From: an uncultured Verrucomicrobiota bacterium
GTDB lineage: Bacteria; Verrucomicrobiota; Kiritimatiellia; RFP12; UBA3636
NCBI GenBank assembly: GCA_946624575.1
Contig: CAMOSH010000001.1
Location: forward strand, 7,778-71,777
Direction: 5' to 3'
DNA: 64,000 nt
In this document: piece after piece, positions 5,326-63,796 of the stretch
Numbering within the stretch: the first letter of the stretch is position 1
Layout of the letters: the number at the start of each line of letters is the position of its first letter
The notes under the pieces: model-generated
Seen by the model: the letters and a program-made list of their open reading frames with translations, nothing else
What the model was told of the DNA's origin: nothing
The model's database searches: none
Position numbers and translations under genes: made by a program

Positions 5326-7599
5326 ATGAACCGCAACCTAGTCAATTGGATCTTTTCGCGCCCGCGCGTGCACGAGGGGATTCCGTTCGCGAACGGCGTA
5401 TCCGGGGCGCTCGCGTGGGGCGAAGGGCGCATCCTGCGCGTGACGCTCGGGCGCGCCGACCTCTGGGACCACCGCGGCGGGATGCCGTGGACGGCCGCGC
5501 AGAACTTCCGCGACCTCCGCGCCGCGCTGGAAGCCGGCGACGAAGCGCGCGTGAAGGAGATGTTCGCCTATCCGCCGCCCGCGCCCGGAACCCCGCCGCG
5601 GCCGTTCAACGTGCCGGTTGGCACCGTGGCGTTCGACCTCGGAGCGGGACTGTGCCTGGAGTCCGCCGCTCTCGACGTCGAACGCGGCACGGCGACGGTC
5701 CTGGCGCGGCGGACGGACGGGAAGCGCGGGGCGGCGCGCATCCGCCTCGATTTCGACCTGGAGCGCGGCGTCCTGTGCATCGAGTGGCCGCGCGGTCTTG
5801 CGCCGAAGGTCTCCGCGCACCCCGCCTGGGAGAAGATGGGCGACAAGCTGGCGTCGCTCTCCTACGCGCCCCCGGCGCGTTTCCGCTGCAAGTCGGCCGC
5901 AGGCTGGACGCAGGCCCTTCCCGCCGACCCCGCCGTGGCGGCGGGCTGGCGGACCGAAGGAGGCGCGACGTTCGTCGGCGCGGCGCGGGGCGCCGGACCC
6001 GCCGCCGCGCGCAAGGCGCTGTGCGGCGCGTTCGACGGACTGCTGGCGGCTGGCGGCCTCGCCGCCGTCCGGCGGGCCTCCGCCCGTTGGTGGCGGCGCT
6101 ACTGGGCCGACGTGCCGCGAATCGGCATCCCCGACGACACGCTGCGGCGGATGCACGACTTCGGGATGTACAAGTTCGCCTGCCTCACGAGGCCGGAAGG
6201 CGTGGCGGCGACCTTGCAGGGCCCCTGGGTCGAGGACGACCGGATCCCCCCGTGGTCGAACGACTACCATTTCAACGTCAACGTCCAGATGTGCTACGCA
6301 CCGTCCTTCCACGGAAACCGCCTGGGGCATCTGGCCCCGCTCTTCCGGATGATCCGGTCGTGGTGGCCGCGGATGCGCGAAAACGCGCGCCTCTACGCCG
6401 GGGTGGAGGACGGTTTCCTGCTTCCCCATGCCGTGGACGACCGCTGCACTTGCATGGGCAGCTTCTGGACGGGCGCCGTCGATCTTGCCTGCACCGCGTG
6501 GATCGCCGCGCTGATGTTCCGCTACGTGCGCTACACCGGCGACCTGGACTTCCTGCGCTCCGACGCCTTCCCGTTCATGCGCGGCGCGATGCGCGTCCTC
6601 CGCGCCGTCATGGAGGAGAAGGACGGACGCCTCTCGCTTCCCGTCACCGTTTCGCCCGAATGGCACGGCGACGCGATGGACGCCTGGGGCCGCGACGCGA
6701 GCTTCCAGCTTGCCGCCGGGCACCGTCTCGCCGAAGACCTCGTCGAGGCGGCGCGGATGCTGGGCGGGGAACCCGATCCGGCATGGACCGACGTCCTCGC
6801 GCGGCTCCCGAAGGCGACGCTTGTCGATGGCGCGTACGGCCCGGTCGTCGGGCTGTGGGAAGGAACCGCGCTCACCGAGTCGCACCGCCACCATTCGCAC
6901 CTTGCCGCCATCGCGCCGTTCGACACCATCGACCTCGACGCCCCCGAATGGCGCGACGTCGTGCGCGACTCGCTCGACGACTGGATCGTGCACGGGCCGG
7001 GACGCTGGACGGGCTGGTGCATCCCGTGGGCGGCGATCCTCCATGCGCGCGCCGGACACGCCGACGCCGCCGAACTCTGGCTGGAAATCATGGACCGGCT
7101 TTACGTGAACGACGGCCACGGCACCCGCCACAACCCGCTCTTCCCCGGCCTTTCCGTCATGGGACGGTGCTCGTTCGACGCCTTCGGCGACGACTCCCGC
7201 GACGGCGGCGAAATCATGCAACTCGACGCCGGGATGGCCGCCGTCGCGGCGGTGCAGGAAATGCTGGCGCACGAGCGGCGCGGCGTCGTGCGCCTCTTCA
7301 AAGGCGCGCCGCAGCGCTGGCGCGAGGTGGAATTCCATGGCATCCGCGTCGCCGGCGGGTTCCTGGTTTCAGCGCGCCGCACGGCGGCACATGGCGTCGA
7401 ATGGGCGGAAATCCGGGCGACCCGTGCCGGAACGCTTCTTCTCGAATCGCCGTGGGGCGCGGGATCCGCCGTCCAGATCCGGGTCTCCGGCGCCCCTTCG
7501 CGCACCATTCGGCCGGATCTGCGTGGCGTACTCGCGCTCGACTTCGTTCGTCCCGGCGCCCAGACGAGCGTGACGCCGCGCCCGTCGACCTTGCGGTAG
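5326..7599 (+). CDS. glycoside hydrolase family 95-like (alpha-L-fucosidase family)
   Basis: N-terminal IPFANGVSGALAWG resembles GH95 PxGNGxLGAMxxG. WSNDYHFNVNVQMCY matches the GH95 catalytic-region signature (DYHxNINxQMNYW). Confidence 0.55.
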   Translation: MNRNLVNWIFSRPRVHEGIPFANGVSGALAWGEGRILRVTLGRADLWDHRGGMPWTAAQNFRDLRAALEAGDEARVKEMFAYPPPAPGTPPRPFNVPVGTVAFDLGAGLCLESAALDVERGTATVLARRTDGKRGAARIRLDFDLERGVLCIEWPRGLAPKVSAHPAWEKMGDKLASLSYAPPARFRCKSAAGWTQALPADPAVAAGWRTEGGATFVGAARGAGPAAARKALCGAFDGLLAAGGLAAVRRASARWWRRYWADVPRIGIPDDTLRRMHDFGMYKFACLTRPEGVAATLQGPWVEDDRIPPWSNDYHFNVNVQMCYAPSFHGNRLGHLAPLFRMIRSWWPRMRENARLYAGVEDGFLLPHAVDDRCTCMGSFWTGAVDLACTAWIAALMFRYVRYTGDLDFLRSDAFPFMRGAMRVLRAVMEEKDGRLSLPVTVSPEWHGDAMDAWGRDASFQLAAGHRLAEDLVEAARMLGGEPDPAWTDVLARLPKATLVDGAYGPVVGLWEGTALTESHRHHSHLAAIAPFDTIDLDAPEWRDVVRDSLDDWIVHGPGRWTGWCIPWAAILHARAGHADAAELWLEIMDRLYVNDGHGTRHNPLFPGLSVMGRCSFDAFGDDSRDGGEIMQLDAGMAAVAAVQEMLAHERRGVVRLFKGAPQRWREVEFHGIRVAGGFLVSARRTAAHGVEWAEIRATRAGTLLLESPWGAGSAVQIRVSGAPSRTIRPDLRGVLALDFVRPGAQTSVTPRPSTLR

Positions 7600-7986: not shown

Positions 7987-10095
7987 ATGGCACGCAAGAT
8001 CCCGCTCGAAAAATACCGCAACATCGGCATCATGGCCCACATCGACGGCGGCAAGACGACGACGACGGAACGCATCCTGTACTACACGGGCGAAAACCAC
8101 AAGCTCGGCGAGGTGCATGACGGCGCCGCGACGATGGACTTCATGGTCCAGGAGCAGGAGCGCGGCATCACGATCGGCTCGGCCGCAACGACATGCTTCT
8201 GGCGCGACCACCAGATCACGATCATCGACACTCCAGGCCACGTGGACTTCACGGCCGAAGTTGAGCGTTCGCTGCGCGTTCTCGACGGCGCGGTCGCGCT
8301 CTTCTGCGCCGTCGCAGGCGTCCAGCCCCAGTCCGAGCAGGTCTGGCGCCAGTCCGAGAAATACAAGGTCCCCAAGATCATCTTCGTCAACAAGATGGAC
8401 CGCGTCGGCGCCGACTTCTTCGGCTGCTACGAGGACGTGAAGACCATCCTGCACGGCAATCCCGTGCCGATCGTGGTCCCGATTGGCAAGGAGGACGCCT
8501 TCGAGGGCGTGGTCGATCTGGTGCGCATGCGCGCGCTCCGCTTCGACGAGGCGTCCAACGGGCTCAAGGTCATCGAGGGCGAAGTCCCGGCCGAGCTCAA
8601 GGACCAGGCCGAGGAGTGGCGCCAGAAGATGATCGAATGCGCCGCCGAGACCGACGACGCGCTTCTGGAGAAGTTCTTCTCCGGCGAGGAACTCACGGTT
8701 GACGAGATCATGGGCGCGCTTCGCAAGGCCACGATCGAGCGCAAGATCCAGCCGATGCTCTGCGGCACCTCGTTCAAGAACAAGGGCGTCCAGCCCCTGC
8801 TCGACGCGATCGTGGACTTCCTGCCGTCCCCGCTCGACCTGCCGCCTGTCGTCGGCGCGCTCCTCAAGAAGGATCAGGAGGCCGGCAAGGAGGCCCCCGT
8901 CCGCAAGCCTTCCGACGACGAGCCGTTCTCCGCGCTCGCGTTCAAGATCGTCTCCGACAAGATGATGGGCAAGCTCGTCTATGCCCGCATCTACTCCGGA
9001 AAGCTCGAAACCGGCGCGACCGTGTGGAACATGTCGCGCGAGCAGGAACAGCGCGTCGCGCGTCTCGTCCGCATGCACGCCAAGAAGCAGGAAGCGCTCT
9101 CGGAGGCATACGCCGGCGACATCGTGGCGCTCGTCGGCCTCGCCCGCACCCGCACGGGCGACACTCTCTGCGACGAGGACCACCCGATCATGCTCGAATC
9201 GATCGAGTTCCCGGCGCCGGTCATTTCGATTTCGATCAAGCCCGTCTCCCATGCCGATTCCGAGAAGCTTTCGCTCGGTCTCCAGGCGCTGGCCGACGAG
9301 GACCCGACGTTCGTGGTCGCCTACGACCAGGAGACGGAGGAGACGATCATCTCCGGCATGGGCGAACTCCACCTCGAAATCATCGTTGACCGCCTCAAGC
9401 GCGAATACGGCGTCGAGGCGCAGGTGAACCCGCCCGAAGTCGCCTACCGCGAGACGATCACGCAGACCGCCGAAGGCCAGTACAAGCACGTCAAGCAGAC
9501 GGGCGGCTCCGGTCAGTACGGCGATGTCTATCTCCGCCTCGAACCCCAGCCCGCCGGCACTCCGTTCGAGTTCGTCAACGCGATCGTCGGCGGCGCGATC
9601 CCCGGCGAGTTCATCCCCGCCGTCGAAAAGGGCGTCAAGGCCGCGATGGAGAAGGGACCCTACGCCGGATACCCGGTGGTCGATACGAAGGTCACGCTCT
9701 ACGACGGATCGTTCCACCCGGTGGACTCCTCGGCGATCGCCTTCGAACTGGCGGCGCGCCAGGGCTTCAAGAAGTACATGCTCGAAGCGAAGCCGCAGCT
9801 GCTCGAACCGGTGATGAACGTCGAGGTGACGATGCCCGAAGATTACTTCGGAGCGGTCTCCGGATCCATCGGCCAGCGTCGCGGCCGCATCGAAAGCATG
9901 GAGGACAAGGGCGGCCAGAAGGTGATCCACGCGCAGGTGCCGCTTTCCGAAATGTTCGGCTACTCCAACACGGTGCGCACCCTCACGCAGGGCCGCGGCG
10001 CGTTCACGATGATCTTCAACCAGTACGAGCCGGTTCCGGCCGGCCTGGCCAAGGAGATCGTCGAAAAGCGCCAGAAGGCTGGCAAGGTCCGGTAA
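7987..10095 (+). CDS. fusA: translation elongation factor G
   Basis: [39 protein letters not shown] and NKMDR GTPase motifs. Full-length EF-G domains (702 aa). Track ORF 7720 is extended upstream in frame. Confidence 0.9.
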
Positions 10096-54171: not shown

Positions 54172-54921
54172 TCAAGACCCTTTCGCGCCGAAGGAGAACC
54201 CCGCGCCCGGCAGGCTGCAGAACAGGAATTCGATGGGATACAGGACGAGTCGCGCGGCCAGTTCCGCGGCCATTGTCTGGAACTTGTCATACCACGCCAC
54301 GCTGTAGGGGTCGCCGGTCTCCTTGAAGACGAGCCGGTGCCACGCCACCTCTTCCCAGAGGCCATTGGCGATGACTCTGTTCGTTCCGACCCTGCGGTAT
54401 TCCCTGACGGCCAGCTCCGTCGTTTCGTCGTCCATCGGACAATGGCAGTCCTTGAAGCGGAGGCGCGGGCTGTCGGGCGCAAGAAACCAGGCTTCGAGCC
54501 TCCCTTCGTCGATTTCGGCGGCGCGGCCTCCGAGGAAGTCCCAGAAACGGTCGACGTAGGCATGCGCCTGCGTCCGGTTGATCACGGACTGGATTTTCCC
54601 GAACGTGATGTCGCGGTCGAATCCGAAATCGTTCCCCATGTCGGTGCCGACGGCCGCGGCGATGCGCTCGGCGCATATCCGGAAACTGTCTTCCGGGTCG
54701 GCGCCGCGAGCCAGGGCCGCCTCGTAGTCGCGGAGCGCCGCCCGCCCGCCGATGTCGAAATCGATCTCCGGCTCGTCCTTGGCCAGGAGCGCATCGCCCC
54801 GCGACCGACGCCGCGGCCAGATCGGCTCCGCGAGAACTTCCCTCACGGCCCGCCCGAACGGATCGCTGAAAAGAGCGATGGCATTCCCCATCCTGTGAAT
54901 CGTGTCGCTTGTCATTGTCAT
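54172..54921 (-). CDS. hypothetical protein
   Basis: 249-aa ORF with normal amino-acid composition and no recognisable motifs. GC-rich like the backbone. Confidence 0.35.
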   Translation of the reverse strand: MTMTSDTIHRMGNAIALFSDPFGRAVREVLAEPIWPRRRSRGDALLAKDEPEIDFDIGGRAALRDYEAALARGADPEDSFRICAERIAAAVGTDMGNDFGFDRDITFGKIQSVINRTQAHAYVDRFWDFLGGRAAEIDEGRLEAWFLAPDSPRLRFKDCHCPMDDETTELAVREYRRVGTNRVIANGLWEEVAWHRLVFKETGDPYSVAWYDKFQTMAAELAARLVLYPIEFLFCSLPGAGFSFGAKGS

Positions 54922-55052: not shown

Positions 55053-56801
55053 TTATCCCAGGATTTGTCGCAGACTTGCCTTCAAATTGCGCTGTCTGGC
55101 CTCAATGAATGACCGGAAATCCTCAATTGCAAGGCTCGTGTCATCATCCACGAACAAGTCGCCGGTCGAGACATGTTTTTGACTGGCCCACTCCTGCAAG
55201 GGGGCGTCGCCTTTGCCACCTGAACCGTTTTCCTGCGTGCCGAGGAGCTGCAGATTGAGGACGGTGTTGTAGTTTTCCAGGAAGAACTTGCGGTCATCGT
55301 CGGAAAGGTTCAACTGTGCCAATTTGGCCTTGTCCTCAAAGATGGTCTTCGGATGCATGTGATCCTGGGCAACGGCCTTTCCGAACTGAATCGCCTTGTC
55401 CGGATACAGCAACTGAAGGACGAGCGTGCATTCTGGACTTTGATATTGGGACGAAAGCAGTCCCTCAAGGAAATCGTCCTCAAAAGAATAGTTTTTAACG
55501 GCATCTCCAGTGCAAGAGGCGACAATTTCATCGAACGGGAAGCTGCCCGAGGAATCGTTGCGAATGACCTCGCGGAATCTCCGCAGGATCGTGTCTGACT
55601 GTCCACTGAAAATCCGCTTCAGCAAAGACAGGTTCAGCCATTTGAGGATTGACTTCCTGTCCTTTTCCGGGAAGGACGGCTTCGACACCTTGTCGGCAAG
55701 ACGGTTCTTGTACAGCCAATAGGCGATCGGGATCGCCGCGTTCTTTGCGGTGAGCAGCGAATCGGAATATCCAATCGACTCCAGAAGCTCGAACGTGGAC
55801 ACCAACGCCTTTTTGATGTCATCCCACGCCGCTTCGAACCGGCGCACCTGCTCCAAATTGAAATTGGCCAACTTGAATCGGATGTCCTCCGATTCGCAAA
55901 CGAGCATTGCCTTCGAGATGAAATCCTGGGAAACGTTGAAGTTGGGATTGCCAAAGCCGAAAATGAGCTTCCTGACGTTGGCGATCTCCTTTCTCGCGTC
56001 ATGACGCTCCCAGTTTGCGGACGAGATGGACATCAGAAGGTCGGAAAACGACAATGGCGTTCCGCCGCTGTTCGTCCGGAGGAAGATGTCCAGAACCTTG
56101 TCCTGGTCCTGCGATGCGATTGTCGTGTAGTTCATCACCTCTTCCGTATGGTATTTGCGGAAGAGCTTCATAAGAGTCGCCCGGGCGAATTCGTTGCCAT
56201 GCAATTTGTTTTCAAACAGGAAGGACACGAGTTTCCCGTCATCGAAACCTGCGATCTCACCGACTTTGAACCAGAAGTACCCTTCATTGCAGTTGCATGA
56301 GCGGACTTCGTCATCGGTCAGAAACTTGAACTCGTACTCCTTCTGATTGTCGATTTGCGATGGCAATCGGCGCCCCAGATTCAGATACAGGCGCCTCGTG
56401 GGGAACGCGTCCTCGGTGTCCCTGTACCACTTGCCGGCCTTCTTGTACCTGTAGGTTCCGAAAAGGCCGATGTAGAGGCTCGTAAGGCGCTGTTGCCCGT
56501 CGATCACGGCGAAAAAGTCCGGCACTGCACCGGAGGCAAAGTCCGGGTTGTTCTCGTGGAAATGTTCGCAGTAATTCAGCAGAAAGCCATAGAACTGCTG
56601 GGTATTCCGTATGGCTGCGTCCTCCACGTGCCACAACATGAACGAATTGATGGGGTAGCCGCGCATGATGCTGTCGAAAAGCATTTCGATCTGCTCCGGG
56701 GACCAGACAAACTTCCGCTGAATGGCAGGGAGGACAAAATGGTGGGATTCGATATTCTCCATCGCCGTCTTGATGGTCTTGTCGATTGTAATCGCTGACA
56801 T
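55053..56801 (-). CDS. GmrSD-like type IV (modification-dependent) restriction endonuclease, DUF262 + DUF1524
   Basis: N-terminal DUF262 signatures HFVLPAIQRKFVWSPEQIEMLFDSIMRGYPINSFMLW and FFAVIDGQQRLTSLYIGL (the DGQQR motif). C-terminal DUF1524 His-Me-finger-like VAQDHMHPKTIF. Region is AT-richer than the flanks. Confidence 0.7.
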   Translation of the reverse strand: MSAITIDKTIKTAMENIESHHFVLPAIQRKFVWSPEQIEMLFDSIMRGYPINSFMLWHVEDAAIRNTQQFYGFLLNYCEHFHENNPDFASGAVPDFFAVIDGQQRLTSLYIGLFGTYRYKKAGKWYRDTEDAFPTRRLYLNLGRRLPSQIDNQKEYEFKFLTDDEVRSCNCNEGYFWFKVGEIAGFDDGKLVSFLFENKLHGNEFARATLMKLFRKYHTEEVMNYTTIASQDQDKVLDIFLRTNSGGTPLSFSDLLMSISSANWERHDARKEIANVRKLIFGFGNPNFNVSQDFISKAMLVCESEDIRFKLANFNLEQVRRFEAAWDDIKKALVSTFELLESIGYSDSLLTAKNAAIPIAYWLYKNRLADKVSKPSFPEKDRKSILKWLNLSLLKRIFSGQSDTILRRFREVIRNDSSGSFPFDEIVASCTGDAVKNYSFEDDFLEGLLSSQYQSPECTLVLQLLYPDKAIQFGKAVAQDHMHPKTIFEDKAKLAQLNLSDDDRKFFLENYNTVLNLQLLGTQENGSGGKGDAPLQEWASQKHVSTGDLFVDDDTSLAIEDFRSFIEARQRNLKASLRQILG

Positions 56802-56898
56802 AAAAACACTCCTGTGTTGGTTGGTTGTTGGTGAAAGTAGTGGTTGGTTGTTCGCCCCGCCCGGCGGGCGCCGGACGGGGCGAATTGAGTTCCAACCG

Positions 56899-57261
56899 CT
56901 ACTTCGCCGGCCTGTATTTCGCCAGCTGCGGCTGGGCCTCCAGAAGCCACGCCCAGTCGCGATCGTCGAGGGCTTTCCACATTCCGGCCTTCCAGTATTC
57001 GTCCGTGCGGAGATCGACGAATTCGGGGCGCTCGCGCAGGAGTTCCACCCAGTCGTAGGTCGTGACTTCGGACCAGTCGCACTTGTCGGCGAGCTGGGGG
57101 AGTTTTGTCAGAATCCGCACCCAGTCCTCGCCGTTGATGCGCTTCCAGCTCAAGTCGTAGTTCCGTTCGGCCTCTTCGTAGTTCTCCAGAATCAGGTCGG
57201 CGATGTCGGCCGATGCGAGATGCGACGTGTCGAGTTTGCTGTTGCAGTTTTCCGTGTTCAT
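56899..57261 (-). CDS. hypothetical protein with three W-x-x-LL repeats
   Basis: MNTENCNS...EDWVRILTKLPQLADKCDW / YDWVELLRERPEFVDLRTDEYW / DRDWAWLLEAQPQLAKY. AAGGAAAA SD upstream of the ATG at 57261. The longer track ORF (to 57456) is an upstream in-frame extension. Confidence 0.35.
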   Translation of the reverse strand: MNTENCNSKLDTSHLASADIADLILENYEEAERNYDLSWKRINGEDWVRILTKLPQLADKCDWSEVTTYDWVELLRERPEFVDLRTDEYWKAGMWKALDDRDWAWLLEAQPQLAKYRPAK

Positions 57262-57464
57262 GTGGCGTTGTTTTCCTTGGGGTGTGGTTGGCAAATGCCC
57301 AGAAGGGACCGGGACGATCCCGTGGAACGTGATTTCCATTATCGCCAACTCCCGTTGAAAGATCAAGGTTAAAACGGGAAAAACTCGGTGAACCGGAAAA
57401 TTTTTTTTGTGCTGCCGCGCTTTTCCGGGACCGCGCCGTCGCACTTCGCCCCGCATGGGATGGC

Positions 57465-58075
57465 CAAGTCAAGGTCATCACGGGTTTGAGGCGATGCGGG
57501 AAATCGTATCTGCTCCGCAAACTCTTTTTCGACCACCTCCTTGCGTCCGGCGCAACACCAGAAGACATTCTTGTCATCGATCTCGATCGCGACGACATGG
57601 CGGACTTGCGCCATCCGCTTCGCCTTGGATCCCATGTCCGTGAATGGATTGGAAAAACGACTGCGCGGCGGCATCTGTTCGTTGACGAAATCCAGCGGTG
57701 CGAATCCGTGCCGAACCCGGCCATTCCCGAAGGAGCGCCGATAACGTTATCTGCAACGAGTAGCTTGCGAGAGGACAATCCGTGGACGTCGGCGTTGTTC
57801 CCGGGCGCGAGACCGACGTCAAGGGCAATTCCATCCACGTCAACCGAGAAATCGATTTTGTTGTGAACAAACCCGGAACACGCGTGTACATCCAGTCCGC
57901 ATGGGCGATGCCCGATGATGACAAGCGGGAGCGCGAACTCGCTCCGTTTTCCAAGACCGGCGACTCCTTCCGCAAGATTGTCGTTCGGGGCGATGTCGGA
58001 CGTGGCTGGCAGGATGACCGAGGAAGCCTTCATGTAGGCCTGGCGGAGTTTCTGCTCGACGAAACGCTTGTCTGA
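57465..58075 (+). pseudogene. frameshifted and internally deleted AAA-family ATPase (AAA_14 + DUF4143 type) remnant
   Basis: Frame 0: KVITGLRRCGKSYLLRKLF...DILVIDLD...RHLFVDEIQRCE (P-loop and Walker B). Frame +2 from about 57782: NSIHVNREIDFVVNKPGTRVYIQSAW...FRKIVVRGD (DUF4143 C-terminus). Only about 200 of the expected 400 codons remain. Confidence 0.5.
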
Positions 58076-58227
58076 TTCGTGGACATCACGCTCTGCAGCG
58101 GAAACGACAAGCACTTCCGCGGCATCGAAGGAATCCGCGCGCAAGTGTTCCGGCCGGAGTAGCGTTGCCATTGTCAACGCCTCCCGCTTCCGTTCGCGGC
58201 CTCCACAGTGGCGTCTGCCGCCAGAGG

Positions 58228-58465
58228 CCGGACGGGGTGCGACCTGTTGTCGTTTCATCCTTTCGCCCTGTTGCCGAGCGGGCCGGACCTCGGGGGCAAG
58301 CCACCCCCGGTCGCGGTCGGTCGACGAAAGGACAACAGGACATCAGGACGAAAGGTCGTGCCCCGTTCGCCGAAGGTTCCGGGGGCGCGACCGATCAAGT
58401 CTCCCCGTTTGCCAAAGGCATCAGGGGCGCGACCTGTTGTCCTTTCGTCCTTTCGTCCTGTTGTC
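58228..58465. repeat. iteron-like array of 8-bp motifs (CTGTTGTC / CTTTCGTC) in direct and inverted blocks
   Basis: Block 1 (58233-58273) gcgacc TGTTGTC gTTTCaTC CTTTCGcC CTGTTGcC gagc. Inverted block (58316-58350) GACGAAAG GACAACAG GACATCAG GACGAAAG. Block 3 (58421-58462) gcgacc TGTTGTC CTTTCGTC CTTTCGTC CTGTTGTC gagc. GGGGCGCGACC repeated at 58377 and 58416. Block 3 overlaps the last about 20 codons of the McrC-like ORF. Confidence 0.45.
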
Positions 58466-60050
58466 GAGCACACTCCAAAATTGGATCAAGCCGGGTGGAT
58501 TTGGATGGATCCAGCGGACGCCCTTCGGCATAGGCCCTGAACAAGGCCATTCCATCGACTTGTACTGCGAGGATGTTTTCCGACAGGCAATTCGTGTATT
58601 CCTGCGAAATATTTTCGCGAATCCAGCTGAACAAGGGAACGGTGATCGTGGCGAAATTGCTGACGGGCTTCCCCTCGGCAACCTGTTCGTCACCCTTGTT
58701 GGGAAAGACGAAGGCGTTGCAGACCTTAAGATTGTTATCCTTGCAAAGGTCCGCGAATGCCAGCTGATAGAGAAACTGCTTGTCGATGTCGCCGACGCCC
58801 GGGCAGTTGCTGATCGTCTTTCCGCCGGTTCCAAACTCCGGAAGATAATACTTCGCGTCGAGGATTACGAGCCTAGTTTTGGCGGTGTCAACGGCAATAA
58901 AGTCAGGCCGAAGCCGTGAACCCGAAGCGCCGTCTTCCCCTTCACTTTGTTCGGCATCGGCTTGTTGGCCGTGTTTCGTCCATTTGGGCGGCTCGATGAA
59001 ATCTTTGAGCGCTTTGCCATTCCCCTCGTTACAGCGCAGGCCTAGATCGCCCGGCTTCTTGTCCATTTGGTCCCCGAACACGTCCTTGACGGCACGTTCC
59101 CACAGCTGCGCGACACCGTTCATTCCGAAGGAGAGGGACTGGTTGTCGGCGGCCTTGTTCTCGGCGGTCTCCCGGATCAGGTCCTTCATCAGCGAAAGGG
59201 TGTGGCGCGATTTCGTGACGAACTGGACCTTCAGTTCCTTGTCGATCTGGGCGATCTGGTAGTCGGGCTCGCCGAACCAGTCGAGTTCCTCCTCGCTCAG
59301 GAGCGGCACGTTCACCCGCAGGACGGACGAAAGTCCCAGTTCCTCCAGCTTGCGTCCCCACATGGTGACGAGGCACTGGTGGAGACGCGTGATGTAGTGG
59401 TCCTCGTCCGACCAGGCGAGCTCGGTGGCGTAGTCCATGTAGACGGGACGTGCCTTTCCGTCCTTCTTCAGGAACACGGGCTGGTATTGGTCGATGGTCG
59501 TCTCCCAGTCGATCTCGCCCTGGCCGTTGTGCTCCAGCTCCCGCCGTTGGACTGTGTAGACGCCGTTCTCGAGGTAGTCGCGCAGGAGGCGCACGGCGAG
59601 TTCAAGCAGACTTTCCTTTTGCTCTTCCGTTTCCTCGGTCTGGTCATCGATCTGGCTCCGGTTTCCGGGGTAGCGGTCGATGGCCTGGAGAACGACATCC
59701 CGGACGGACGGATCTTGCAGCTGGCTCCTGGAAACGAACTTCGGCATGAAGAAGAAGGTCAGGTTTCTTCCCGTTCCCTCCTCGCCGTTGTCGACATAAT
59801 CGTAGAGCCCGACGAACCGGAACGAATACCCGTCGTTCGTCTTTTTGACGACGGTCGTCTCGTCCTTGTCGGCAAGACCGTTGTCCATCGACTTCTTCAG
59901 GCGGGCAAGGAAATCATCGTCTAGCCAGTCAAGATTCGTTTCGCCGGACTCCGCCTCCGACGACTCCCCCATCGAAGCCGAAACGTCCTTCCGGAACGTC
60001 TCGACGCCATAGGATGTTTCTTCGCGGAGGTAGACGAGACGAATGCTCAT
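58395..60050 (-). CDS. McrC-like / LlaJI-type restriction endonuclease subunit (PD-(D/E)xK)
   Basis: PDFIAVD...RLVILDAKYY resembles the McrC PD...D-x-K nuclease motif ((I/V)xDxKYK). 4-bp overlap with the upstream McrB-like gene. Confidence 0.6.
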   Translation of the reverse strand: MSIRLVYLREETSYGVETFRKDVSASMGESSEAESGETNLDWLDDDFLARLKKSMDNGLADKDETTVVKKTNDGYSFRFVGLYDYVDNGEEGTGRNLTFFFMPKFVSRSQLQDPSVRDVVLQAIDRYPGNRSQIDDQTEETEEQKESLLELAVRLLRDYLENGVYTVQRRELEHNGQGEIDWETTIDQYQPVFLKKDGKARPVYMDYATELAWSDEDHYITRLHQCLVTMWGRKLEELGLSSVLRVNVPLLSEEELDWFGEPDYQIAQIDKELKVQFVTKSRHTLSLMKDLIRETAENKAADNQSLSFGMNGVAQLWERAVKDVFGDQMDKKPGDLGLRCNEGNGKALKDFIEPPKWTKHGQQADAEQSEGEDGASGSRLRPDFIAVDTAKTRLVILDAKYYLPEFGTGGKTISNCPGVGDIDKQFLYQLAFADLCKDNNLKVCNAFVFPNKGDEQVAEGKPVSNFATITVPLFSWIRENISQEYTNCLSENILAVQVDGMALFRAYAEGRPLDPSKSTRLDPILECARQQDERTKGQQVAPLMPLANGET

Positions 60051-61750
60051 GCGTGTTCGCCGGTTTTGTTCCAGGGGGCCTTCCAGTTTTCATCGTCCTT
60101 ATCGGTAACATTTTTGAAGACATCTTTGGCCCCAGGCCACGTGTCCACAATATCCGAGTAGGTTTTGATTTTGTCTCCGAAAAGCTTTTTGCGGCACATT
60201 CGGCCGGCGTCTTCCCAAAGGTACATAAGAACCTTCGACTTGAACTGGTCCGCGGATACGGATTTGTTGTTCTCCGGCTTTACGAACCACGGCCCCATCA
60301 ACTTATCCTCGTTGACTCCATTGTCTGAAAGTTGCTTATTGACAAATCTACGAATCTGGTCCCAATAGTAGCCCGAATCGCCAACAACCCACTCGCTGGG
60401 AGCACCTTTGTCACCTTGTTTGTTATACCCCTCGTCAATTCCGACATACTTGAACTCCCACCGGCGCTTGAAGGCGGTGTCCATCGGGAAAACGCCCTGG
60501 TCGGCGCTGTTCATCGTCGCCCAGATGTACATGTTGGAGGGAATGCGAAGGCGGCATTCCTTCCAGATGTTATTCCCGTTTTCGTCTTTGCCCGGAACAA
60601 CCTTCAGAAACTTGCGTGCCGACTCGCATTTCGCAAGTTCTTCCTTGAGATATCGTTTGATGTCTTCAGAAGCCGCCACATCGTACTCGCTAGCGGCACC
60701 GTCTCCAAAGAACGGCTTGATTGATTCGTCGTCACCGTCACTCCACTTGCCTCCGCGATCCAGCAGCTGGAACACGTCGCCGAAGACCGCTGCCGCGTTG
60801 GCGCGGTTGATCTCCTCGATGACGAGACAGTGGTTGTGGGCGTGATCTTTTAGCGCATCCACCAGCACACGGAGGAACGGACCGGGGACGAATTGGTAGG
60901 CAATTTCTTCCGATTTCTTGCCGTCCGTATCCGTTGTTTCTTTCATCACCGGCTTGTAGCAACCGACGAACTGGGCGTAGGAATACGTAGGATAGAACGT
61001 CACGCGCTCGTAGCGGCGTTTGACAACTTTTTCATTGTCGATGTCGACAAAATATCCGAATATCTCATTGCCGTCAACATCCTTTTTGGATGCCTTCCCC
61101 GCATTGTCCACTTTTCCTTCGACAGCTTCTTTGAGCTTATGGCTCTTCCCCGTCCCTGGTGCGCCAAAGTAGATGAGGTTGCGGGAGAGCGGCTTGTCGT
61201 TTTGGTCAGCTGGGTGGCTGGCTGGAACTAGTGGAGAACCAGCCTGTGCGTCATGGCTGCTGTCAGAGTCAAAGACTTGTCCATGATACTTGGCGGTTGC
61301 ATCTACAACTGTGCTGACTTTGGTAACAAGTTCTTTGAAAAAGCTACGCCATGCAGTTGCATCTTTAGGCGAAGCGACAATTTGCTCATATGCTTTTTGA
61401 GGGGCCTCACATCCATCCCGATAAAACCATAGTGTTCTTGGTTTCGCGTTTTTCTTTTCAGCAGTTTTAATGTTTTTTCCAAGTTGGTCTTCATTGAGCA
61501 TAAATCCGGGAGACTCAATTTGTAGTTCCTTTAATCTGTTCAAAATGTCTTCTGGATCATTCCCCTGCACACTAAGACCAAACCCAGGTTTGCTAGGCTT
61601 AGTGTAACCGTATACAAAGATGATTGTCACATTACCAATATCACACAATGCGCAGTCGTAAACATTCCCGTTTGGTTGTGACCATGACTTGGGTTCCGTG
61701 ACAAATTGCCGTGCAATTTCTGCTTTCTGTTCGTTACTCAGGGGGTTCAT
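60047..61750 (-). CDS. McrB-like GTPase (AAA+ AAA_5) restriction-system subunit with N-terminal DNA-binding domain
   Basis: Walker A NLIYFGAPGTGKSH. McrB signature CLVIEEINRANAAAVFGDVFQLLDR. The 5' third is strongly AT-rich. Confidence 0.75.
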   Translation of the reverse strand: MNPLSNEQKAEIARQFVTEPKSWSQPNGNVYDCALCDIGNVTIIFVYGYTKPSKPGFGLSVQGNDPEDILNRLKELQIESPGFMLNEDQLGKNIKTAEKKNAKPRTLWFYRDGCEAPQKAYEQIVASPKDATAWRSFFKELVTKVSTVVDATAKYHGQVFDSDSSHDAQAGSPLVPASHPADQNDKPLSRNLIYFGAPGTGKSHKLKEAVEGKVDNAGKASKKDVDGNEIFGYFVDIDNEKVVKRRYERVTFYPTYSYAQFVGCYKPVMKETTDTDGKKSEEIAYQFVPGPFLRVLVDALKDHAHNHCLVIEEINRANAAAVFGDVFQLLDRGGKWSDGDDESIKPFFGDGAASEYDVAASEDIKRYLKEELAKCESARKFLKVVPGKDENGNNIWKECRLRIPSNMYIWATMNSADQGVFPMDTAFKRRWEFKYVGIDEGYNKQGDKGAPSEWVVGDSGYYWDQIRRFVNKQLSDNGVNEDKLMGPWFVKPENNKSVSADQFKSKVLMYLWEDAGRMCRKKLFGDKIKTYSDIVDTWPGAKDVFKNVTDKDDENWKAPWNKTGEHA

Positions 61751-61834
61751 AGCATTAGTTCCTTACTGTTTTTCTCTCCGCTCCTTAGCGGCTGGAGGGG
61801 TTGGTTGTTGAAAATGAAGTGGGCTGGATTCGTT

Positions 61835-62092
61835 CTACCGCTCGTGCCGTCGGGTTGGCGAGTACTGGCACCCGGCGCCGGTGGAGGTGGAGCCGCACCA
61901 GATGCACTTGCCGCCGCCGTGCCCGTGGCGGTGGAGGCGGTTCGGCCCGTACTGGCAGCCGTGGCCGTAGGACGAGCTGCCGCACCATTCGCAGTGCTTC
62001 TCGTCGTCGATGTGCTCGTGGAGGTGGTCGGGTCCGTACTGGCAGCCGTGGCCGTAGGACGTGCTGTTGCAGTGCCTGCATTTCGTGCTCAT
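61835..62092 (-). CDS. small Cys/His-rich protein with three tandem CxxC-(8)-GxGC-QYGP-x-x-(L/R)H repeats
   Basis: 85 aa: CRHCNSTSYGHGCQYGPDHLHEH / CEWCGSSSYGHGCQYGPNRLHRH / CIWCGSTSTGAGCQYSPTRRHE. GGAGAA SD 7 nt upstream of the ATG. GC-rich like recD. The DNA repeats are near-identical. Confidence 0.45.
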   Translation of the reverse strand: MSTKCRHCNSTSYGHGCQYGPDHLHEHIDDEKHCEWCGSSSYGHGCQYGPNRLHRHGHGGGKCIWCGSTSTGAGCQYSPTRRHER

Positions 62093-62149: not shown

Positions 62150-63796
62150 TCAAGAATCGTTTCGTGCCGCCAGTCCCGAAACGCGCTCGATGGCGTGTTG
62201 CGCGCAGTGGCGGATCGCATCTTCGGATCCCCAGATGGCGACGGTCTTCTTCGTCCGCGTGATCGCGGTGTAGAGGATCTCGCGTGTGAGGAGCTTGAAG
62301 GAATCGGACTCCTCCTTGCGTTCCTCCGGCTTGCCGGTGTTGGGCGGAAGCACAATCGCCACGTCGTCGAATTCCGACCCCTGCGCCTTGTGAACGGTCG
62401 ATGCAAACGCGAGTTCCGTATCCGGCAGCAGCTCCAGCCTGATCTTTCTGCCCCCAGGGAGATGCAGCGTCTTCGGGTCGTCCGGCATGACCACGCCGAC
62501 GTCGCCGTTGTCAACCCCCAGCGTCCGGTCGTTCTTCGTGATCATCAACGGAACCGGACACTTCTTATCCAGCAGCTTCTTGATCCATCTGGCGAGTTGC
62601 TCCGAACCAAAGGGGCCGTGGCGCAGGGCGCAAAGCACACGGAAGTCGTTCAGGTGCGCGAGGGCGAACTCGACGGAATCCTTTGGCTCGCCCTCCTTGC
62701 CTTCCGGCTTATAAGCGGGACTTCCGGCGAAAGCCGCGAAGCCGGCCCGAACCTTGTCCGCGAAGCCTGGCCACTTCGCAGGATCAAAGACCGCGTCCCT
62801 GGACAGGCCGGCAAGGTCGACGTAGGAGACGAGATCGGACTTGCCTTTCAGGATGGCCATCGCCTCGTCGGCCTTCTCGTCGGTGCCGGCGTTGACGGCG
62901 GCGGCTAGCTTTGCGATGTCGCCGTCTGGCGGGAATCGGCGACTCTCCACGAGGCGCGAGACCGCGACGCCCGGGAAGCGGCAGAGATCATGGAAGACGC
63001 ACCCACGCTCAACGGAGGCGAGCTGGTCGGCATCGCCGGCGAGGGTGAGACGGCAGGAGGCCGGAATGGCGTCGACAAGCTTCGCCATGAGCGGCAGGTC
63101 GATCATGCTCGCCTCGTCGATGACGAGCCAGTCGAAGGCGAGCGGATTGTCGCGGTTGTGCTTGAAGGTCACTAAATCGTAGTTCGATTCCAGCAGCTTG
63201 TGGATGGTCGTGGCCTTCGGAATGGCGAAACCCATGTCCTTTGGCATGGACTCCATCATGCGGGCGGCGGCCTTGGCGGTGGGTGCGGCAAGTCCCAGCC
63301 GGAAGTCCGGCCGGCCGTCGTGGATGAACTTGACGGCGCGGGATATCGTAAACGTCTTGCCGGTGCCGGGGCCGCCGGTGAGAATGGAGAAACGCGAGTT
63401 GCACATCGCGATCACGGCATCCCTTTGTTCGGAGCGGAGGCCGGCGTAGAACAGGTCGTTTGGAAGTTCCGTGACGGAATCGTCCATTTTCGTCTGAATG
63501 CTGCGCACTATCCAATCCCGGACCCGCCGTTCATAGACCCAGTTGCGCCGCGTGTAGAGGTGGCCGTCGGCAACGACGAACGGCGTACGGACTGTGTCGG
63601 GGGATGTGCCTTCCACCACGAAGGAAACGACATCGGGAAAGCCCTTGAGCAGCTCTCGCTGCTCTTCGTCGATTTCGCGGCAGACGTCGCCCTCCTCGAG
63701 GGCGCCAACCGTCGCGGCGCACAGCTCCGCCACGTTCACGGCCTTGTCGCCGCCGCCGATCATGCGGAAAACGAAATCGAAAACAGTGTCTTTCAT
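62150..63796 (-). CDS. recD: RecD-like helicase (exodeoxyribonuclease V alpha subunit family)
   Basis: Walker A LTGGPGTGKTFT, motif II WLVIDEASMIDLPLMAKL, LAGDADQL, and C-terminal SF1B motifs (STVHKAQGSEFDDVAIVLP). Confidence 0.75.
   Translation of the reverse strand: MKDTVFDFVFRMIGGGDKAVNVAELCAATVGALEEGDVCREIDEEQRELLKGFPDVVSFVVEGTSPDTVRTPFVVADGHLYTRRNWVYERRVRDWIVRSIQTKMDDSVTELPNDLFYAGLRSEQRDAVIAMCNSRFSILTGGPGTGKTFTISRAVKFIHDGRPDFRLGLAAPTAKAAARMMESMPKDMGFAIPKATTIHKLLESNYDLVTFKHNRDNPLAFDWLVIDEASMIDLPLMAKLVDAIPASCRLTLAGDADQLASVERGCVFHDLCRFPGVAVSRLVESRRFPPDGDIAKLAAAVNAGTDEKADEAMAILKGKSDLVSYVDLAGLSRDAVFDPAKWPGFADKVRAGFAAFAGSPAYKPEGKEGEPKDSVEFALAHLNDFRVLCALRHGPFGSEQLARWIKKLLDKKCPVPLMITKNDRTLGVDNGDVGVVMPDDPKTLHLPGGRKIRLELLPDTELAFASTVHKAQGSEFDDVAIVLPPNTGKPEERKEESDSFKLLTREILYTAITRTKKTVAIWGSEDAIRHCAQHAIERVSGLAARNDS

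Follow-up and report, generated by a model that had tools for sequence, protein, structure and literature searches.

In the core defence hotspots (cDHS) cDHS1 and cDHS2 of Pseudomonas aeruginosa, as in the defence-island hotspots of E. coli, variable defence cargo of lower GC content lies between conserved chromosomal markers. The Pseudomonas hotspots have conserved flanks and no mobile-element signature, and homologous recombination through those flanks has been proposed as the route of exchange (PMC10250203). The DNA analysed here, a 64-kb stretch of contig CAMOSH010000001.1 from an uncultured Verrucomicrobiota bacterium (the window), shares these features in its segment between pheS and recD. 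It is probable that this segment is a chromosomal defence hotspot, lying just downstream of recCBD in a gut/rumen Kiritimatiellae genome, and not a single mobile island. Its low-GC cargo would be two independent and apparently intact nuclease systems, a BrxU-like enzyme of the GmrSD family and an McrB-like GTPase paired with a nuclease subunit of the LlaJI.R2 family. The reading is built on observed gene identities, base composition and the pattern among related loci, where conserved flanks, variable defence content and empty sites, the marks of a core defence hotspot, are all found.

The nature of the marker sets this locus apart. The markers of cDHS1 and cDHS2 are a pair of single-copy core genes, whereas that of the window is a small multi-copy gene family, W-rep, which encodes a tryptophan-rich helical-repeat protein. 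One genome has recCBD flanked by two or more W-rep copies, and at some loci the copies are in tandem or fused. Cargo follows immediately behind the marker, in the same orientation, and the host belongs to an uncultured Kiritimatiellae lineage.

A search of genome contigs with RecD for syntenic relatives returned nothing, and the boundaries were approached instead through the W-rep family, with comparison loci (L-numbers) drawn from gut and rumen metagenome Kiritimatiellae. W-rep has 28 homologues at 73–100% identity, and between species the nucleotide homology is limited to the W-rep coding sequence. The most instructive relative is L008, in which a homologue of orf249 (55% identical), the gene that lies beyond BrxU in the window, is found only 38 nt behind W-rep with no BrxU between them. 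Synonymous divergence (dS) in this comparison is 0.72 for W-rep and 0.82 for orf249; the similarity of these values implies that W-rep was vertically inherited and that BrxU was inserted between two native neighbours. Recent spread of W-rep as a mobile gene was also considered and is ruled out by the same equality of its dS with that of orf249. The ratio of nonsynonymous to synonymous divergence (dN/dS) of W-rep is 0.13–0.33 between loci and 0.44 against the paralogue of the same genome in L003. W-rep is thus a genuine native gene under purifying selection.

The same-strand gene or genes directly downstream were scored in 22 evaluable W-rep contexts. An intact defence-family gene stands no more than two genes downstream in 13 of them; recognisable defence cargo is absent from four (L008, L014, L016 and L032). 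The cargo begins 40–240 nt downstream of W-rep. What lies behind W-rep is as follows.

BrxU: the window, L017 and L024; also L022, after a 246-residue gene.
A 5' remnant of BrxU with a 203-residue low-GC gene: L003/L015 and L033–L035.
GmrSD-like genes: L009 (a pair) and L020.
McrB-like gene with LlaJI.R2: L011 and L026.
McrB-like gene with McrC (PF10117): L023 and L031.
McrB-like gene: L029.
PDC-S27: L007.
Genes of no recognised family: low-GC genes in L010 and L019; a W-repeat-like gene and a 429-residue gene in L018.
orf249: L008.
recC: L014.
FGE-sulfatase-like gene: L016.
Small open reading frames (ORFs) of no family, followed by UPF0227 and cpYpsA genes: L032.

The junctions of these loci bear the marks of exchange. 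In the genome type of the window, recCBD stands between two directly oriented copies of W-rep that are separated by about 17 kb. Behind the copy that lies upstream of recC come the hairpin and AACAACCAACC leader seen in the window and ~40 codons from the start of BrxU, after which the sequence is unrelated. In the closely related strains L033–L035 this junction holds an extra gene that is missing from L003, a 441-residue W-repeat fusion, and after it a duplicated 3' remnant of W-rep with hairpin and leader. Such an arrangement is the pattern expected from recombination within W-rep sequences. Between L017 and the window, W-rep is 77–92% identical and BrxU 93–100%, and in L022 and L024 the BrxU alleles are mosaic; cargo is exchanged independently of the W-rep anchor. 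Downstream of recD in L031 stand two W-rep genes, the repeat element described below, McrB with McrC, and then a Cys-rich gene, an arrangement which implies that the same chromosomal neighbourhood can hold different cargo.

Several low-GC genes in the cargo position match no Pfam or PADLOC family: L003 4156–4767; L010 10860–13379 and 13991–15676; L019 436–1641; L021 2327–4681; and L022 1685–2680 and 3536–4276. These (839 and 561 residues in L010, 203 residues in L003, and those of L019, L021 and L022) are candidate new defence genes.

Base composition separates cargo from residents within the window itself. In 400-nt windows the GC content is 0.62–0.74 up to ~54.8 kb, falls to 0.43–0.60 over 54.9–61.8 kb, being lowest (0.43) at 61.4–61.8 kb, and returns to at least 0.60 past 61.8 kb. 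The remainder of the 64-kb window has a GC content of 0.60–0.71 and at 2-kb resolution nowhere falls below 0.60. Tetranucleotide distance to the backbone reaches z of 3.9–9.4 in every 2-kb window from 54 to 63 kb and stays at |z| <1 in the flanks. The drop in GC that a preliminary description of this DNA placed at about 55.0–61.8 kb is therefore real; its statement that all ORFs here are of defence or mobile type does not hold. GC at third codon positions (GC3) is 0.78 ± 0.08 in the backbone, 0.83 in W-rep, 0.94 in the Cys-rich gene and 0.82 in orf249, so that W-rep and the Cys-rich gene are compositionally native. The low-GC modules are the BrxU gene, with GC 0.526 and GC3 0.72, and the McrB-like gene, with GC 0.496 and a GC3 of 0.41 in its N-terminal part. 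The features of the segment, in order along the window, are these.

53040 to ~54050, minus strand: pheS.
54172–54921, minus strand: orf249, backbone-like (GC 0.647, GC3 0.82), the downstream edge of the BrxU module.
55053–56801, minus strand: BrxU/HEC-05-type enzyme of the GmrSD family, 582 residues, with Pfam, PADLOC and PDB 7P9K matches.
56802–56898, minus strand: intergenic leader between W-rep and BrxU, with a hairpin, AACAACCAACC repeats and an AGGAG Shine–Dalgarno sequence.
56899–57261, minus strand: W-rep, 120 residues, tryptophan-rich helical-repeat protein, native and conserved.
57444–58072, plus strand: pseudogene of an AAA_14/DUF4143-type ATPase, identified by six-frame translation, an AAA_14 match and tblastn.
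58225–58475, no strand assigned: GC-rich palindromic repeat element of ~250 nt, built from a ~45-nt unit in direct and inverted orientation.
58395–60050, minus strand: LlaJI.R2-family (McrC-like) PD-(D/E)xK nuclease subunit, 551 residues, PF09563.
60047–61750, minus strand: McrB-like AAA+ GTPase subunit, 567 residues, with an AAA_5/McrB-like match.
61751–61834, minus strand: 5' leader of the McrB-like gene, with a AACAACCAACC motif and a small stem-loop.
61835–62092, minus strand: Cys-rich protein, 85 residues, three repeats, native composition.
62150–63796, minus strand: recD (TIGR01447), which closes recCBD and bounds the segment upstream.

RecD scores 342 bits on TIGR01447 (cut-off 310), and recC and recB lie upstream of recD in L001, L004 and L005. 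The product of orf249 has no match in Pfam, PADLOC or NCBIfam. A 560-residue ORF at 56576–58258 on the minus strand, which spans W-rep and the pseudogene and has a GC3 of 0.53, was rejected as a shadow ORF.

These observations suggest how the hotspot may have been built. Low-GC restriction-type cargo would have been inserted, replaced and left to decay at this position, with gain, loss and swapping of cargo directly downstream of W-rep family genes. The native W-rep, Cys-rich gene and orf249 would thus come to lie between or beside the cargo, together with the dead ATPase gene and the repeat element. The route is most likely homologous recombination through the conserved W-rep sequence and other conserved flanks, and would need no integrase.

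Several points weigh against this interpretation. The comparison loci are for the most part short contigs from metagenomes and represent a narrow clade. The BrxU contexts of the window, L017, L022 and L024 may be one orthologous locus, in which case there have been fewer independent events than contigs. The GC3 of BrxU is only about one standard deviation below that of the backbone, and the gene may have been in the clade for a long time instead of arriving recently. Several cargo genes behind W-rep (L010, L018 and L019) belong to no recognised defence family. Finally, the recombination route is inferred from the structure of junctions, and the functions of the BrxU-like enzyme and of the McrB/R2 pair are predictions from sequence.

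The alternative with the best claim concerns the role of W-rep itself. The preliminary description counted 121 residues, one too many, and found no obvious family, and in this it was correct: W-rep has no match in Pfam, NCBIfam or PADLOC and no significant neighbour in the PDB. The AlphaFold2 model (mean predicted local distance difference test score, pLDDT, 92) is an all-helical solenoid repeat. A profile of the repeat, searched against 1.84 billion representatives at E <=1e-3, recovers 1147 proteins, most of them with 4–17 copies. One of these combines a TIR domain at its N terminus with a P-loop NTPase and a long C-terminal repeat array; another has weak Schlafen and STAND NTPase matches, several below the Pfam cut-off, together with Sel1 repeats; a 17-copy protein has no Pfam match. 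The W-repeat is an uncatalogued helical repeat that is also found in proteins of immune-sensor-like architecture.

W-rep modules are also seen fused in frame, with two or three tandem copies per ORF (L010 9623–10723; P0003, P0149). The 441-residue protein of L033 (10462–11787), found in L034 and L035 as well, joins N-terminal W-repeats to a C-terminal domain of no known family. In viral contigs the sole match is a long array of distant W-repeats (~30–39% identical) at 8001–11101 of L013, a large putative viral contig (222 kb) from IMG/VR. On this evidence phage do not appear to carry W-rep or the repeat element, as viral contigs yield this one weak array and no copy of the repeat element.

It is possible that W-rep is a functional partner of the downstream nucleases, acting as a regulator, an adaptor, a sensor or a decoy for phage anti-restriction proteins, and is not a passive anchor, although we lean against this view. 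In its favour are the short spacing and common strand of W-rep and cargo, the predominance of GmrSD and McrBC-type enzymes among that cargo, the purifying selection on W-rep, and the presence of W-repeat arrays in the TIR/P-loop NTPase protein and the weak Schlafen/STAND protein, whose architecture is typical of immune sensors. Scans for sigma-70-type promoters and terminators, which may not apply to this phylum, find no canonical terminator between W-rep and cargo in the window. However, W-rep also precedes non-defence genes or empty sites, namely orf249 in L008, recC in L014 and the FGE-sulfatase-like gene in L016, and homologues of BrxU and McrB outside the clade function without it. The preliminary suggestion that W-rep may be an accessory component does not hold in the sense of a private accessory of the window's two systems, for it is a conserved multi-copy gene of the lineage that precedes many different cargo genes. 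A broader proposal, which we regard as doubtful, is that W-rep, of an undescribed helical-repeat family, takes an active and generic part in a modular system of defence cassettes in Kiritimatiellae, its gene serving both as a homology arm by which different restriction cassettes are exchanged behind it and as a co-transcribed regulator or adaptor of whichever nuclease follows. If true, this would amount to an integrase-free cassette platform flanking recBCD.

The leader between W-rep and BrxU contains a GC-rich hairpin of 15 bp at 56851–56884 that has no U tract, and the RNA is predicted to fold with an energy of −53 kcal/mol (z −7.4). Hairpin and leader recur behind W-rep paralogues in L003, L017 and L033. 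A C/A-rich motif of the (A)ACAACCAACC type is found at 56816–56852 and 61796–61809 of the window and also ahead of start codons in L011, L012, L017, L020, L024 and L033. Genes for W-rep, for BrxU-like and McrB-like proteins and for other cargo carry it in their 5' leaders, ahead of a Shine–Dalgarno sequence resembling AGGAG; it probably serves as an unstructured leader or translation enhancer typical of the lineage. A search of Rfam with 54.0–62.6 kb gave matches at chance level only.

Returning to the hotspot and its cargo, the nearest relative of the first nuclease is BrxU (HEC-05) of Escherichia fergusonii plasmid pEFER, a GmrSD-family type IV enzyme that acts on modified-cytosine DNA (bioRxiv 10.1101/2024.01.29.577857; 10.1101/2024.04.04.588119). 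Homology between the two single-gene systems is collinear over the full length: PDB 7P9K aligns at E 1e-93, with residues 9–579 of the window's protein against 7–576 of BrxU, and the PADLOC HEC-05 model PDLC04151 covers residues 5–581 at E 2e-190. The order of domains is a DUF262 NTPase/sensor, a helical linker and a His-Me (DUF1524-like) nuclease. The preliminary assignment to a DUF262/DUF1524 enzyme of GmrSD type is borne out for the first domain by PF03235 (GmrSD_N, DUF262; E 1e-31, above the gathering score), whereas the Pfam model for the second, GmrSD_C (DUF1524), is sub-threshold at E 0.015. The C-terminal assignment therefore rests on the collinear alignment with BrxU, which extends through residue 579 and pairs DHMHP with the DHIYP of BrxU. 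The motifs are IQRKFVW (27–33), MLFDS (40–44), DGQQR (101–105) and DHMHP (480–484). The QR, (R/M)LFDS, DGQQR and DH(I/M)xP motifs of BrxU are all kept, as are all those required of BrxU or HEC-06, and family membership is indicated by an N-terminal DUF262 domain with QR and DGQQR and a C-terminal His-Me domain with (D/E)H..P. There are two differences. The nucleotide-binding motif RLFDS has M as its first residue in the window's enzyme, and BrxU/HEC-05 has been described in clusters with BREX, Hma or type I restriction–modification (R-M) systems, whereas here it follows a W-repeat gene. An exact look-up of the protein returned no contig, and the sequence is present in the clustered collection.

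Type IV status of the BrxU-like enzyme is well supported by homology to the experimentally characterised BrxU. By the same analogy, the DUF262 domain would bind and hydrolyse nucleotide and sense modified-cytosine DNA, which the His-Me (DHMHP) nuclease would then cut. Cleavage may thus depend on hydroxymethyl-, glucosyl-hydroxymethyl- or 5-methylcytosine, a specificity we infer from the homology.

The second nuclease system compares with two others. Like McrBC of E. coli and Thermococcus gammatolerans, it has an AAA+ GTPase with McrB signatures and a PD-(D/E)xK partner whose gene lies downstream and overlaps, and homologues differ in, and swap, the N-terminal reader domain. The McrB-like protein has Walker A (196–203), Walker B (310–318), the NxxD-type signature MNSAD (413–419) and the arginine-rich motif FKRRW (427–431). 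McrB structures in the PDB match it in the AAA+ part only (E 5e-10 to 1e-7), and on the NCBIfam McrB model it scores below the model cut-off. The start of R2 overlaps the stop of the McrB-like gene by 4 nt. R2 matches PF09563 (RE_LlaJI) at E 2.4e-41 and PADLOC REase_II PDLC03447 at E 4.5e-44, and has no match to the McrC model PF10117. Its nuclease motif, PD...D-A-K, lies at 381–400 (RPDF 381–384, LDAKYY 397–402); homology to relatives stops near residue 514, and the last ~37 codons and the stop codon are inside the repeat element. The McrB/McrC-like pair of the preliminary description thus stands as a GTPase with an adjoining McrC-type nuclease partner, but the family of that nuclease is LlaJI.R2.

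By homology to McrBC, the N-terminal domain would pick the target DNA, a hexameric AAA+ ring would hydrolyse GTP under stimulation by the nuclease subunit, and cleavage would follow translocation. The N-terminal domain of the McrB-like protein (residues 1–160) is novel. In more than 8000 homologues it is the C-terminal 62–67% of the protein that is conserved, and the N-terminal domains are swapped; in the full-length search only ~11 proteins share the N-terminal domain, at 22–33% identity, and a word-indexed search with that domain alone found nothing. In McrB homologues it is this domain that sets the target, which may be 5-methylcytosine, 6-methyladenine or a specific sequence (PMC7680126), and LlaJI, which has an McrBC-like organisation, is blocked by modification (PMC3874153). 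For these reasons the type IV (modification-dependent) label is unproven for the McrB/R2 pair. The preliminary claim of two type IV systems fits the BrxU-like enzyme by homology but does not carry over to a pair whose LlaJI.R2 founder is modification-blocked and whose N-terminal domain matches nothing known.

It could be asked whether the pair is instead the restriction half of a LlaJI-type R-M system that cuts unmethylated sites, with its methyltransferase or methyltransferases encoded elsewhere. The pair of R1 (McrB-like) and R2 genes and the family match of R2 in the Pfam and PADLOC models recall LlaJI of Lactococcus pNP40 and LlaJI.R1 of Helicobacter pylori, and the reported behaviour of LlaJI points the same way. 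However, LlaJI carries two methyltransferases, and there is no methyltransferase gene beside the pair in the window or beside its homologues in L011, L012 and L026; in the other 57 kb of the window the large ORFs yield no Pfam match to a methyltransferase either. The pair is bordered in the window by the Cys-rich ORF and recD on its upstream side and by the repeat element and the pseudogene of the ATPase on its downstream side. An enzyme that cuts unmodified DNA would be toxic to its own host in the absence of a linked methylase. The R1 domain of LlaJI is B3-type, while the McrB-like protein's N-terminal domain has no similarity to that domain or to any solved reader domain. Since no methyltransferase adjoins the pair at any of these loci, a classical R-M arrangement is unlikely, and so is this explanation as a whole.

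In the 5' leader of the McrB-like gene, the stem-loop that accompanies the AACAACCAACC motif shows compensatory changes in L011 and L012. Its arms are CTCCAGCCGC..GCGGAGAG in the window (61772–61797, minus strand), CCTCCCGCCGC..GCGGGGGAGG in L011 (~5935–5965) and CTTCCCGTCGC..GCGGGAAG in L012 (~9950–9980). The structure is retained in these homologous operons though the proteins are only ~50% identical, and it may be regulatory. A gene for a Vsr (very-short-patch repair) endonuclease lies at 409–1002 of L011, 5 kb from the locus with W-rep, the Cys-rich gene, McrB and R2. Its presence hints that the genome of L011 encodes a C5-methyltransferase of Dcm type; if true, this would limit the targets of the McrB-like system there.

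That the whole 6.9-kb stretch is one horizontally acquired island, the product of a single insertion between orf249/pheS and recD, is very improbable. The composition anomaly is unbroken from 54.9 to 61.8 kb and the large genes inside it are all of defence type, which speaks for an island. Against this, the GC3 of W-rep and of the Cys-rich gene is native, and relatives carry one module without the other, BrxU in L017 and L024 and McrB/R2 in L011 and L026; in L008, W-rep has been vertically kept beside orf249 without BrxU. The single island that the preliminary description bounded at 54.95 and 61.8 kb is thus replaced by at least two foreign modules, BrxU and McrB with R2, among native genes, and the single-island reading was rejected on composition and synteny. 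Its observation that integrase and tRNA are lacking holds: a tRNA search of the 64-kb window found none, the large ORFs of the other 57 kb, which are housekeeping, transport and glycoside-hydrolase genes, have no Pfam match to integrases or transposases, and direct repeats bounding the 54.9–61.8 kb block were not found. The integrase or recombinase, tRNA or att target and flanking direct repeats of an integrase-mobilised island were accordingly not found.

Three smaller residents of the hotspot complete its description. The Cys-rich ORF contains three tandem repeats of C-x2-C-(G/N)S-x-S-x-G-x-G-C-Q-Y-x-P-x3-H-x-H and belongs to no Pfam or NCBIfam family. Homologues of 56–106 residues lie beside defence cargo in L007, L011, L025 and L031, and the gene, a second recurrent resident of the hotspot, may encode a small zinc-binding protein. 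The ATPase remnant is a pseudogene, and the frameshifted DUF4143-type ATPase of the preliminary description is recognisable in it. Its N-terminal fragment matches AAA_14 at E 3.6e-13. A tblastn search with the intact 411-residue homologue from L012 places residues 15–123 at 57444–57764 (frame 2) and residues 335–403 at 57842–58054 (frame 1); the P-loop and C-terminal parts are thus in different frames, and ~210 central residues, with the DUF4143 middle part of the protein, are deleted.

The repeat array seen in the preliminary description is the palindromic element at 58225–58475, which overlaps the 3' end of the R2 ORF; the repeats themselves run over 58234–58470. Its ~45-nt unit contains ACAACAGG and is present in direct and inverted copies with internal hairpins; all four ACAACAGG sites of the window are inside it. 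Copies that are 85–90% identical are found in L010, L026, L029 (two), L030 and L031, always within W-rep loci of other species. The element matches no Rfam family, is absent from viral contigs, and is regarded as a repeat of this lineage resembling repetitive extragenic palindromic (REP) sequences or miniature inverted-repeat transposable elements (MITEs). That it is an attC-type site in an integron-like cassette array is scarcely credible and was rejected: an imperfect palindrome does lie at the 3' end of the cargo in the window and L010, and beside the cargo in L026, L029 and L031, but no integron integrase was found in the window or at any locus, the element is inconsistently placed, being absent from the BrxU module and most W-rep loci, its partial, tandem and inverted copies vary as those of a REP or MITE-type repeat do, and the cassettes would be several kilobases long with leaders of their own.

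W-rep loci repeatedly adjoin genes of double-strand-break repair, including recCBD, sbcCD, AddAB-like genes and ligA (L007 14388–18773; L009 15504–20361; L031 1–9970; L033 1–1869 and 14561–20363). This proximity may reflect conserved synteny of the clade or a real preference of the hotspot for that neighbourhood.

Both nuclease systems are divergent members of known families, BrxU/GmrSD and McrBC/LlaJI, and the hotspot adds a further case of a phenomenon already known. That the two systems extend the catalogue of these families into a barely studied phylum is unsurprising. Only the W-rep family and its steady placement ahead of restriction-type cargo could prove to be new biology, and the chief interest of the locus is that, across many related genomes, varied defence genes are inserted at one and the same spot, which W-rep marks. 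W-rep provides a simple handle for finding variable defence cargo in metagenomes with gut and rumen Kiritimatiellae, and its loci offer a testable case of integrase-free exchange of defence genes by homologous recombination.

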